From contig JACPGK010000032.1 in the NCBI GenBank assembly GCA_016182495.1, positions 23,917 to 87,916 on the forward strand: DNA of 64,000 nucleotides. Direction: 5' to 3'. Both the position numbers and the translations under genes were made by a program. The notes beneath the pieces are model-generated. The model saw nothing but the letters and a program-made list of their open reading frames with translations. It did not search any database and was not told where the DNA came from. Positions 45,777-48,228 of the stretch are shown piece by piece. The stretch is from Candidatus Kerfeldbacteria bacterium. GTDB lineage: Bacteria; Patescibacteriota; Patescibacteriia; UBA9570. Each line of letters begins with the position of its first letter. Within the stretch, counting starts at the first letter, position 1.

Positions 45777-46715
45777 GTGATTATTGATGAAATCCAGCAT
45801 CTGCCAACATTATTTCCATTGTTACGAGCGTTGATTGATCAGCAGCGCCAACCAGGGCAATTTCTAATTTTAGGCTCTGCTTCTCCACACCTTTTACGAC
45901 AGGCTTCTGAATCATTGGCTGGACGAATCATTTATCATGAATTAACACCGTTGACATTAGCTGAATGCACGCCTCACCCATATACCTGGAAACAATTATG
46001 GTTGCGCGGAGGATATCCTGAAAGCATGCTAGCAAACACCGATACTATTAGTTACCAATGGCGGCAATCATTTATTCGTAACTATATTGAACGTGATATC
46101 CCACAATTACAGGCAATCCGAACATCAGGCGCGCAGTTACAACGACTATTATTAATGTTAGCCCATAGTCATGGTCAGCTATGGAATCGATCAGCCATTG
46201 CTAAGGCCCTCGGTATATCAATGCGTACCATTCAACAGTTTGTTGATTTATTCATTGATACATTTCTAGTACGACAACTCCAGCCTTATCATGTTAACCT
46301 CAAAAAAAGATTAATTAAAACTCCAAAACTCTATTTCCGAGATAGCGGTATTATCCATACACTGCTGAATATTCAAACTCTAGATCAACTGCATAATCAT
46401 CCGGCCGTTGGTGCTTTATGGGAAGGATTTGCCATCGAGCAACTACTGAATATATTACCGTCCACTTGGCAATATTATTTTTATCGTACACACACTGGCG
46501 TAGAAGTTGACTTGCTGCTAATTTCACCAACTCATCAGCACATTCTTGTAGAAATAAAATATACTCTATCCCCCACTCTATCACGAGGTTTTTGGGAAGC
46601 CTACCAAGATTTATATTGTCACAAAGCCTATATTCTTTATCCAGGGACAGAACACTATAACCTAGCTAAACATGTAACAGTGTTGCCTATAGCTGCGATA
46701 TCGACGGTAGCATAA
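45777..46715 (+). pseudogene. N-terminally truncated DUF4143-type AAA ATPase (begins at the Walker B, lacks the Walker A)
   Basis: Starts IIDEIQHLPTLFPLL (Walker B region); only about 160 nt of non-coding sequence lie upstream, and a short out-of-frame ORF MIKRQHTAPACDY precedes it. Confidence 0.45.
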
Positions 46716-46770: not shown

Positions 46771-47217
46771 ATGCCTACGTTGGTACACAATCAGCGTCTT
46801 AAATTCGACTATGAAATTTTGGAGAATTTCACAGCTGGTATTGTATTAACCGGTGCTGAAGTAAAATCATGCAAGCGTAAACAAGTGAGCTTACAAGGGG
46901 CTTACATTATTATTGAAGGCGGTGCGGCCTGGTTAAAAAATGCTCGCGTCAGCCCCTACCAAGCCAACAATCAACGACACTACGACCCGTTACGCCTGCG
47001 TAAATTACTGCTGCGCCGAGTAGAACTAGCTAGCCTAACTGGAAAACTCCAACAGGCTGGCTTGACATTACTGCCGGAATCCTTGTATACTCAAGGCGGT
47101 TTAGTGAAAGTTAAACTGGTTCTAGTGCGCGGCCGTAAAAAAGTTGATAAGCGCGCTTTGATCAAAAAACGAGATGTTGATCGTCGCATTGCTCAAGCTT
47201 TGCGCCGAGCAATATAG
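46771..47217 (+). CDS. smpB: SsrA-binding protein
   Basis: KFDYEILENFTAGIVLTGAEVKS and a basic C-terminal tail. Confidence 0.9.
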   Translation: MPTLVHNQRLKFDYEILENFTAGIVLTGAEVKSCKRKQVSLQGAYIIIEGGAAWLKNARVSPYQANNQRHYDPLRLRKLLLRRVELASLTGKLQQAGLTLLPESLYTQGGLVKVKLVLVRGRKKVDKRALIKKRDVDRRIAQALRRAI

Positions 47218-47286
47218 TTAATAAACGTTCCCACCCACGTTGCTTCGTAGAGGGCTTACCCATCGGAGCCACGCAGTGGCGTAGGT

Positions 47287-47684
47287 GGGGATGTGTATAT
47301 CATTGATAGGTTCGTTCTTTATAGTATCGGCTAGCAATGCCCAGCATCATTTCAAAGGCTGAAACTTCTAAGTGCAAACTTAGTTCAAAAAGTAAAAGCC
47401 AAGGTGGCCGCGTTATCTAACGCGTTCCGTCCAGCTTTTGCTCCTGTTGTAGCTTAATTCTACAACCATCCAGCAGGCTGATCTCTGATAGGCCTGTGCG
47501 GGTGTCATATTCATCGGGGTCGGTAGCTGTGTAGCTGGTGCTTAGCTGCCTAAACTATGGCCAGATCGGTTAACACTGTTTGGTGTCATTTTCAGGTGTT
47601 AGCTTAAATTCAAACGGCACTACGCTAGTAGATGATATTATCAAGCCAACCTAGACGCGGGCGTAATTCCCGCCATCTCCACCA
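47287..47684 (+). ncRNA. ssrA: tmRNA (SsrA), standard one-piece; predicted tag ANLVQKVKAKVAALSNAFRPAFAPVVA
   Basis: 3' end GACGCGGGCGTAATTCCCGCCATCTCCACCA (T arm plus acceptor plus CCA); the 5' GGGGATG pairs with CATCTCC; the resume context TAAGTGCAAAC resembles E. coli TAGTCGCAAAC; an in-frame TAA lies at 47455; the gene is adjacent to smpB. Confidence 0.7.
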
Positions 47685-47715: not shown

Positions 47716-48228
47716 ATTTCCAATAAAGATTTTCGCCGGAATGAACAAATCCGATCAGCCCAGGTACGGGTGATCGATGCCCAGGGTAACCAATTAGGTG
47801 TATTATCAATTGCCGATGCCCTGCAACGAGCGCGCGAGCAAGAGGTAGATTTGGTTGAAGTATCACCGTTGGCTAATCCACCAGTTTGTAAATTGATTAA
47901 CTACGGCCAACTGCTGTACGAAAAAAATAAACGCGAACGTAAACAAAAAGCCAAACAAAAAAAAGTTGAAGTTAAAGGTATTCGGCTATCCACTACCATT
48001 GGCGATCATGATTTCAGTATTCGCGTCAATCAATCTCAAAAATTTTTAGAAAAAGGTCATAAAGTGTCAATCGAGTTGCTACTACGCGGGCGACAAAAAG
48101 CCCATCCCGAAGTAGGTTTAGAAGTTATGACCAAATTCCTAGCGGCTATTGCCAGCTGGGCGGTAGTAGAATCACCAATTAAACGACAAGGTGGAAAATT
48201 TAATGCCATTGTAACAGCGAAAAAGTAA
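47716..48228 (+). CDS. infC: Translation initiation factor IF-3, starting at a non-AUG codon (ATT at 47716 or ATC at 47704)
   Basis: The in-frame N-terminal extension KDFRRNEQIRSAQVRVIDAQGNQLG matches the conserved IF-3 N-terminus and no ATG is available; PVCKLINYG motif. Confidence 0.8.
   Translation: MSNKDFRRNEQIRSAQVRVIDAQGNQLGVLSIADALQRAREQEVDLVEVSPLANPPVCKLINYGQLLYEKNKRERKQKAKQKKVEVKGIRLSTTIGDHDFSIRVNQSQKFLEKGHKVSIELLLRGRQKAHPEVGLEVMTKFLAAIASWAVVESPIKRQGGKFNAIVTAKK

Follow-up and report, generated by a model that had tools for sequence, protein, structure and literature searches.

The element described here is a transfer-messenger RNA (tmRNA) gene, ssrA, carried by a stretch of 64,000 nucleotides (nt), hereafter the window, from a metagenome-assembled genome of Candidatus Kerfeldbacteria (Patescibacteria/Parcubacteria group). 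It lies between smpB, which encodes the protein partner of tmRNA, and infC-rpmI-rplT, all on one strand, in the order argS / smpB - ssrA - infC - rpmI - rplT (Table 1). The NCBI SmpB protein of this organism is identical to that encoded in the window. From the comparison of related sequences, we consider it very probable that the RNA is a functional tmRNA that appends the tag ANLVQKVKAKVAALSNAFRPAFAPVVA and whose tRNA-like elbow is a variant fixed in its lineage.

Table 1. Features of the smpB-ssrA-infC region (positions within the window)
Feature	Position	Strand	Basis
smpB coding sequence, 148 amino acids (aa), protein partner of tmRNA	46771..47217	+	open reading frame (ORF); Pfam PF01668; NCBI SsrA-binding protein SmpB
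Putative sigma-70-type promoter: -35 TTGACA (47062-67), 18-nt spacer, -10 TATACT (47086-91)	47062..47091	+	11/12 consensus match
Intergenic pre-tmRNA leader, 69 nt; inner hairpin and motif GAGGGCUUACCCAUCG	47218..47286	+	sequence, folding
Leader stem, 5' arm (AUA-A-ACGUUCCCACC), partner 47284-47298	47221..47235	+	minimum free energy (MFE) structures, covariation
Leader stem, 3' arm: last 3 leader nt and tmRNA nt 1-12 (acceptor 5' strand, part of D-loop)	47284..47298	+	MFE structures
Mature one-piece tmRNA (ssrA), 398 nt	47287..47684	+	RF00023 full-length match; clade consensus fold
Acceptor stem 5' strand GGGGAUG, pairs with CAUCUCC 47674-47680	47287..47293	+	seven pairs invariant in 12 sequences
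D-loop analogue UGUAUAUCAU, without conserved GG; then UGAU 47304-47307 (G19-A20 motif)	47294..47303	+	clade comparison
Tag frame: resume GCA (47374-76), 27 codons, stop UAA (47455-57)	47374..47457	+	covariance model, ARAGORN, 12-member alignment
Helix 5 hairpin GUUGUAG-CUUAAUU-CUACAAC, stop codon in loop	47446..47466	+	seven pairs, several compensatory
T-arm: stem GCGGG/CCCGC, 7-nt loop CGUAAUU (47662-47668)	47657..47673	+	sequence and clade alignment
Discriminator A and genome-encoded CCA	47681..47684	+	sequence
infC (translation initiation factor IF3), probable AUU start 47716; rpmI, rplT next	47716..48228	+	translation ISNKDFRRNEQIRSAQVRVIDAQG, ORFs, Pfam

The tmRNA and its elbow

A first-pass annotation, made from the letters alone, had proposed a tmRNA at 47287-47684 immediately after smpB, and both the identity and the position hold. 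The Rfam model RF00023 matches exactly this interval on the forward strand, from model position 1 to 374 of 374, with 76.2 bits for a gathering threshold of 47 and an E-value of 2.6e-29; between 46500 and 48500, nothing besides tmRNA appears at E <= 1. The two tools named for checking the proposal part ways, however: RF00023 calls a full-length tmRNA, while ARAGORN with default settings calls nothing.

Relatives were collected in two ways. A protein database search followed by contig look-up gave the 11 closest lineages, with SmpB 53-69% identical to that of the window; together with the window they form what we call the clade, and their 12 tmRNAs were aligned (alignment A1). SmpB-guided retrieval from GTDB genomes and JGI metagenomes returned 160 loci (L001-L160), in which tmRNAs were recognised by Rfam or by structural pattern; no relative with SmpB above 55% identity to the window's was found in these two collections. 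Loops were compared over 64 unique tmRNAs, 12 from the clade and 52 from other Patescibacteria.

The tRNA-like domain and the body have the standard architecture. The third acceptor pair is G-U (G3-U70, the alanine identity pair) in all 12 clade members, six of which encode the 3' CCA in the genome, and the 5-bp T-stem shows G-C to A-U compensation in four sequences. At the junction of helix 2, UGAU at 47304-07, whose G-A corresponds to E. coli positions 19-20, faces UAGAC at 47652-56, so that the SmpB contact motif is present; alignment A1 shows no variation at G19, A20 or U21. Of the 78 pairs in the clade consensus fold, 46 show compensatory changes, and the Rfam alignment spans the four pseudoknot regions PK1-PK4, whose hairpin halves covary. 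Its score, acceptor stem, T-arm geometry, G-A motif, reading frame and SmpB partner place the RNA in the standard one-piece tmRNA family.

What sets this RNA apart from its family? The canonical T-loop, U-U-C-R-A-N-Y, holds the sites of 5-methyluridine (m5U54), pseudouridine (Psi55) and C56, and is contacted by a conserved GG in the D-loop; the tmRNA of the window has neither this T-loop nor this GG. The first-pass annotation had remarked on the deviant loop CGUAAUU, and the deviation extends to the whole clade, where the T-loop reads YGURANN in 12 of 12 members, versus canonical UUCRAYU (CGUAAUU as in the window, UGUAAUU, CGUAAAU, UGUAACC, UGUAAUC, UGUGAGG, UGUGAUA). The G at position 2, the U at 3 and the A at 5 are invariant. 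Most clade D-loops are free of G and show a conserved U-A-U stretch in place of the GG, with one invariant A (47299 in the window). Across the comparison set, the D-loop GG occurs in 41 of 46 tmRNAs with a canonical UUC T-loop, in none of the 12 YGURANN tmRNAs of the clade and in none of 6 with other T-loop variants; the UUC loop itself is found in 46 of the 52 non-clade sequences. These six variants are independent of the clade: CUCAYUA in Paceibacteria-like loci (L033, L034, L038, L041), UGCAAUU in L014 and GGCAGUA in L127, each coinciding with the loss of one or both D-loop Gs.

The tRNA-Thr gene of the same window keeps the canonical GG and UUCAAAC, so the loop change is specific to the tmRNA. 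Nor are the odd loops assembly errors, since four Logan assemblies, made independently from other runs, contain the tmRNA and 80 nt of leader as identical copies. The tmRNA T-loop has been termed highly conserved, the exceptions noted being the Caulobacter two-piece tmRNA, with G at U342, and a mitochondrial tmRNA, with GG (PMC1168896). In the window RNA, positions 54 and 55 are occupied by G or C, which rules out the usual m5U and pseudouridine. We infer that the canonical G19-C56 contact may be replaced by A-U56 and G18-Psi55 by a U/G55 contact. It is a lineage-wide rewriting of the elbow, rather than the tag, that is truly unusual in this gene.

The same loops account for the silence of ARAGORN. 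At default settings it recovers none of the 12 clade tmRNAs and 35 of the 64 in the comparison set, that is, 35 of the 52 non-clade sequences, missing 17. When either the T-loop or the D-loop alone was restored in silico, no call was made; with both restored, the gene was called, with an unchanged tag, hence our conclusion that the clade is missed because both loops are altered. Relaxing the threshold to -ps70 also produced the correct tag, ANLVQKVKAKVAALSNAFRPAFAPVVA as with the two-loop repair, but misplaced the gene ends and added many false calls, and was given up. The apparent absence of tmRNA from Patescibacteria genomes can therefore be an artefact of this program.

SmpB of the clade has substitutions of its own when compared with 39 SmpB sequences from other Patescibacteria: E replaces L/I103 in 11 of 12 members (TLLPE for TLVPL) and R replaces K11 in 10 of 12, and positions 34, 49, 56, 129 and 141 differ too. 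Such changes may reflect co-evolution with the altered tRNA-like domain. Co-evolution of the D-loop pocket with the SmpB residue that corresponds to E. coli Trp122 found no support, this position not being Trp in any Patescibacteria sequence examined.

Gene neighbourhood, probable promoter and leader

The order smpB-ssrA-infC-rpmI-rplT is kept in every clade relative, and the tmRNA lies directly 3' of smpB in nearly all Patescibacteria loci examined. In the window, 31 nt separate the tmRNA 3' end from infC, whose start is most likely the AUU at 47716 (ISNKDFRRNEQIR...) and not the GTG at 47770 proposed by the ORF finder. An AAA_14/DUF4143 ATPase gene (45777-46715) stands between argS and smpB; it is missing from most relatives, where argS abuts smpB, and is probably a lineage-specific insertion.

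The best promoter-like site between 45500 and 49500, TTGACA-18-TATACT, lies inside smpB. Its hexamers are made of codons for G-L-T (GGC TTG ACA) and L-Y-T (TTG TAT ACT), and the same hexamers, in the same codons, are present in all 12 clade smpB genes. Of the unique Patescibacteria smpB genes preceding a tmRNA, 48 of 48 also carry them, as TTGAC(A/T/C) and TATA(C/A/G)T, some forming a perfect TTGACA-18-TATAAT. In Flavobacterium smpB, which has no adjacent tmRNA, the G-L-T residues are kept with varied codons and the hexamers are absent. Codon choice at the site departs from that in the rest of these genes: TTG serves for Leu in 56 of 56 cases versus 20% of Leu codons, TAT for Tyr in 56 of 56 versus 68%, and ACA for Thr in 41 of 56 versus 27%. 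This conservation makes it likely that the site is an ssrA promoter embedded in the smpB coding sequence. Transcription would then start near 47098, and the position of the promoter implies a leader of about 190 nt. That a near-consensus promoter has stayed frozen in two pairs of smpB codons throughout a very deep radiation bears on gene expression in the candidate phyla radiation, as a clean case of overlapping coding and regulatory constraint.

The end of this leader contains an inverted repeat (47230-39 with 47280-89) that the first-pass annotation had noticed and read as a possible processing stem, one side of it reaching the first Gs of the mature RNA. The repeat is real: nine of its ten positions pair, the tenth being a C-A mismatch, and it forms the core of a leader stem some 14 pairs long. 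The whole hairpin (47221-47298) has an MFE of -38.2 kcal/mol (z -5.1), a stability reached by none of 200 shuffled sequences. The arrangement is found in 11 of 12 clade members, with leaders of 38-119 nt that differ in sequence; the 5' arm starts anywhere from 6 nt upstream to 19 nt downstream of the point where the smpB stop codon ends. On an alignment trimmed by swapping the leader interior for a GAAA loop, RNAalifold predicts 16 pairs, 11 with compensatory changes. Over the 14 leader-stem pairs, 92.2% of alignment cells are paired; shuffled controls give 72.7%, and none of 500 attains the real figure. Covariation scores 0.52, as opposed to 0.18 after shuffling, and sliding the partner strand leaves only 44-51% paired.

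The leader stem and the mature fold compete. When the presumed precursor of 587 nt is folded, the leader stem wins: positions 47221-47232 engage tmRNA nt 1-8 and 10-12, the 3' acceptor strand is left unpaired, and enforcing the acceptor stem costs 5.2 kcal/mol. Because of this competition, the leader stem must be removed or opened. RNase P matures the tmRNA 5' end (PMC3968760). We give about even chances to a processing stem, the likeliest role, which a double-strand nuclease would cut ahead of RNase P; the idea is plausible, the stem being bigger than first described and supported by covariation, with the nuclease step a prediction only. Translation-coupled unmasking of the tmRNA 5' end is a possible alternative role.

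Some other identities were considered for the hairpin and set aside. It is not an intrinsic terminator (no U-tract, terminator scan negative), and, occurring only once in the window, it is not a repeat or mobile element either. The leader matches no known Rfam family, tmRNA being the only hit at E <= 1 between 46500 and 48500. Two short motifs occur in leaders. The first, GAGGGCYTRCCCNYCG, is found at 47250-47265 in the window and at 2024-2039, 2005-2020 and 1999-2014 in L168, L171 and L176, and only in these four leaders; it holds a GGGC-UU-GCCC mini-palindrome, roughly 22-45 nt upstream of tmRNA +1. The second, RGCGUAG, lies at -9 to -4.

Could the hairpin serve smpB instead, as a 3' stabiliser or terminator of its mRNA, with an incidental overlap of the tmRNA 5' end? 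It begins 4 nt past the smpB stop, overlaps the stop in L169, L170 and L176, and its inner part would stay on the mRNA 3' end after cleavage at +1. However, the hairpin has no terminator signature, as noted above, its compensatory changes track the variable tmRNA positions 8-14 and -6 to -1, and the embedded promoter implies that most transcripts bearing the hairpin are not full smpB mRNAs. We regard this role as a minor possibility, and one that a processing role would not preclude.

A functionless by-product of a G-rich 5' end facing pyrimidine-rich upstream sequence appears less likely still. Pairing of tmRNA nt 1-7 alone is not significant, since shuffled leaders pair with these G-rich positions almost as often (summed pairing probability about 5 of 7), and it was dropped as evidence for the stem. 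The duplex-energy test is moderate: the window is matched by 9 of 500 shuffles, the clade median z is -1.7 versus -0.2 in other tmRNAs (p = 0.002), and z-scores are modest for half of the clade. On the other hand, pairing reaches the A/U-rich positions 8-14 far beyond shuffles (<=0.07 in 8 of 12 clade members versus 3 of 52 others), and nine pairs have changed on both sides, while slid controls are about 47% paired.

A processing stem would fit into the following sequence of events. Transcription from a strong promoter in the 3' third of smpB would start near the position given above; the last 66 nt of the leader (47221-47286) would then fold into the hairpin, whose basal stem would pair with the acceptor 5' strand and D-loop of the tmRNA. 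This stem would be cut or melted, by an RNase III-like double-strand nuclease or by ribosomes terminating on read-through smpB mRNA, before the acceptor stem could form and RNase P generate the 5' end at 47287. The mature RNA would be charged with alanine by virtue of its G3-U pair, bind SmpB, enter stalled ribosomes and add (A)ANLVQKVKAKVAALSNAFRPAFAPVVA, whose non-polar C-terminus would act as a degradation signal.

The tag frame and the function of the RNA

The first-pass annotation had placed the resume codon at GCA 47374, by similarity to the E. coli context, and had read from it 27 residues up to TAA 47455, ending in -PVVA. The covariance model agrees, its consensus UGCaAAC lying over UGCAAAC of the window with GCA at 47374-47376 and no placement elsewhere being seen; the translation, ANLVQKVKAKVAALSNAFRPAFAPVVA, is also that of ARAGORN once relaxed or given repaired loops. 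The stop UAA sits in the loop of helix 5.

This tag had further been called unusually long, with an unusual end. Its length and its -PVVA ending are real, and the commonest tag length overall is 10 aa (PMC11915505), but neither is unusual for the lineage. The tags of the 11 closest tmRNAs are homologous to it and 20-30 aa long (within the clade, 27 aa in 7 of 12 members, otherwise 30, 26, 25, 20 and 20). Among the 35 non-clade Patescibacteria tags called by ARAGORN, the median is 21 aa, 23 have at least 20 aa, five end in -VVA and nine in -AFA. Homologous tags are recognisable in more distant relatives, including Magasanik-, Uhr- and other Patescibacteria (ANLVRQVKNAVASAFSMPTLASVVA; ANFVSKVKNALASAFSVPTFASVVA; ANLLSKVKTAVANAFGGGCNCNFAPVMA; ANLFNRAKNALANAFVPSFAPAVA). 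The tag is thus long in absolute terms, yet lineage-typical: since long tags are the rule across the clade and other Patescibacteria, it is not an oddity of this gene. Tags of the long -PVVA type already figure among the thousands of Patescibacteria entries of the tmRNA database, whose paper counts 5275 tmRNAs of this phylum without commenting on them (PMC11915505, supplementary file 3).

The tag region evolves as a coding sequence. Its frame is open in all 12 clade members, both other frames run into stops, and indels come in multiples of 3. Variable columns number 12, 11 and 20 at codon positions 1, 2 and 3, an excess at the third position, and 124 pairwise codon differences are synonymous. 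Residues 3-18 show hydrophobics spaced by 3-4 with lysines between them, an amphipathic-helix pattern at the level of sequence only, and the C-terminus is non-polar, as in other ssrA degrons. RNAalifold also places a helix inside the frame, 47389-47399 with 47431-47439 (columns 117-125 with 160-174 of alignment A1), which pairs the KVKA codons (AAAGUAAAAGC) with the AFA codons (GCUUUUGC); both stretches are nearly invariant, and conservation of the peptide may derive in part from RNA pairing, or vice versa.

Might translation resume at another codon and yield a shorter or different tag? The choice of codon is not readable from sequence with certainty, and the upstream context, CUAAGU GCA, is slightly unlike that of E. 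coli. Yet the covariance model, the logic of ARAGORN and the 12-relative alignment all agree on the same GCA or GCC, the N-terminal AN(L/F)V is conserved phylum-wide, every member, in spite of indels, has a distance to the helix 5 stop that is divisible by 3, and the alternative frames are closed, all of which leaves a different resume codon very improbable.

A decaying or non-functional tmRNA, its odd loops and low score reflecting relaxed selection in a reduced genome, is hardly credible: the Rfam scores are the lowest among the Patescibacteria examined, ARAGORN makes no call, and D-loop/T-loop interactions are reported as a prerequisite for the binding of SmpB in E. coli (Barends 2002, cited in PMC3968760), but the variant loops are themselves conserved in 12 lineages (T-loop G, U and A; D-loop A) despite SmpB identities as low as those given above, the tag frame is under coding constraint, smpB is intact, its near-consensus promoter is maintained, and the consensus pairs with their compensatory changes and the invariant G3-U acceptor stem argue against a pseudogene.

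We therefore retain a functional tmRNA with a lineage-fixed elbow variant, while several points weigh against this reading as a whole. RF00023 scores are low for the phylum, at 52-87 bits in the clade versus 91-167 in 19 other Patescibacteria tmRNAs, among which the clade outlier L001 (91) is counted. Which D-loop base takes over the G19-C56 and G18-Psi55 contacts is a guess, and the evidence is comparative throughout. As to the leader, the stem arms were taken from the MFE folds of individual sequences, which inflates the covariation counts; L001 has no leader stem, and several non-clade tmRNAs have strong leader duplexes. To these must be added the pairing of nt 1-7 and the moderate duplex energies discussed above.

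A more ambitious scheme can be drawn from the same data. The clade may represent a distinct subtype of tRNA-like domain in which the near-universal elbow contacts (G18-Psi55 and G19-C56) would be swapped for a co-evolved pair, an invariant A and flanking U in the D-loop with G55-U56 in the T-loop, and the RNA would function without T-loop modifications; maturation would be gated by the leader, with the acceptor strand and D-loop masked until the stem is cut or melted by ribosomes terminating on smpB, and the supplies of tmRNA and SmpB would be coupled. We hold this complete scheme to be unlikely.

In sum, the tmRNA is genuine, its tag is ordinary and its structure is a modestly novel variant. 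In the literature, we found no description of the YGURANN T-loop variant, of the leader stem or of the embedded promoter. For structural biology, the clade may be seen as a natural experiment, suggesting that a one-piece tmRNA tolerates replaced D-loop/T-loop contacts. The embedded promoter offers a testable handle on promoter recognition and stable-RNA processing in bacteria that so far cannot be grown alone.

Relation to known systems

The closest model is the standard one-piece tmRNA, with E. coli as the prototype of RF00023. The window RNA shares with it the G3-U acceptor stem, discriminator A and CCA, the T-arm of a 5-bp stem and 7-nt loop, the G-A/G-A motif at the base of a long helix 2, a body that is probably rich in pseudoknots, the partnership with SmpB, the GCA resume codon and the stop codon in the helix 5 loop. 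It differs in its T-loop (CGUAAUU, versus UUCGAAU in E. coli), which has no U54 or U55 for m5U or pseudouridine, in its D-loop without GG, in its tag (27 aa ending in -PVVA, versus 10 encoded aa ending in -ALAA), in its long and structured leader (7 nt in E. coli) and in the putative promoter within smpB.

Other Patescibacteria, such as Magasanikbacteria (L017, L029), Uhrbacteria (L003) and Buchananbacteria (L006), share the smpB-ssrA adjacency and the promoter-like site embedded in smpB. Their tags are homologous, of the form AN(L/F)xxK(V/A)K...AF...FAPxxA, with 20-28 aa and several -VVA ends. Unlike the clade of the window, most of them keep a UUCRAYU T-loop and a GG D-loop, score 91-167 bits and, in 35 of 52 cases, are called by ARAGORN.

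Mycoplasma has a tag of 27 aa as well, deemed unusual and read by Lon (Gur and Sauer 2008; PMC8403727). Both tags are long, hydrophobic and aromatic-containing, and both come from small-genome bacteria; however, the Mycoplasma tag ends in -AFA, that of the window in -VVA, and the two have no sequence similarity. A switch of Kerfeldbacteria to Lon for tag reading is, by this analogy with an organism devoid of ClpXP, only a hypothesis.

A G at the equivalent of U342 (Psi55) is shared with the two-piece tmRNA of Caulobacter and the mitochondrial tmRNA of Reclinomonas (PMC1168896). Those RNAs are permuted or reduced, whereas the RNA of the window is in one piece, has U at the equivalent of C56 and has lost both D-loop Gs.

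Finally, the leader stem resembles the RNase III processing stems that leaders and trailers form in precursors of rRNA and other stable RNAs, conserved duplexes spanning about two helical turns: it is a duplex, some 14 pairs long and reaching about 20 bp in single members, that encloses a mature end in the precursor and is maintained through compensatory changes. In contrast to rRNA processing stems, both of its arms are located at the mature 5' end or 5' of it, and one arm is the acceptor strand itself, so that the stem competes with the mature fold.

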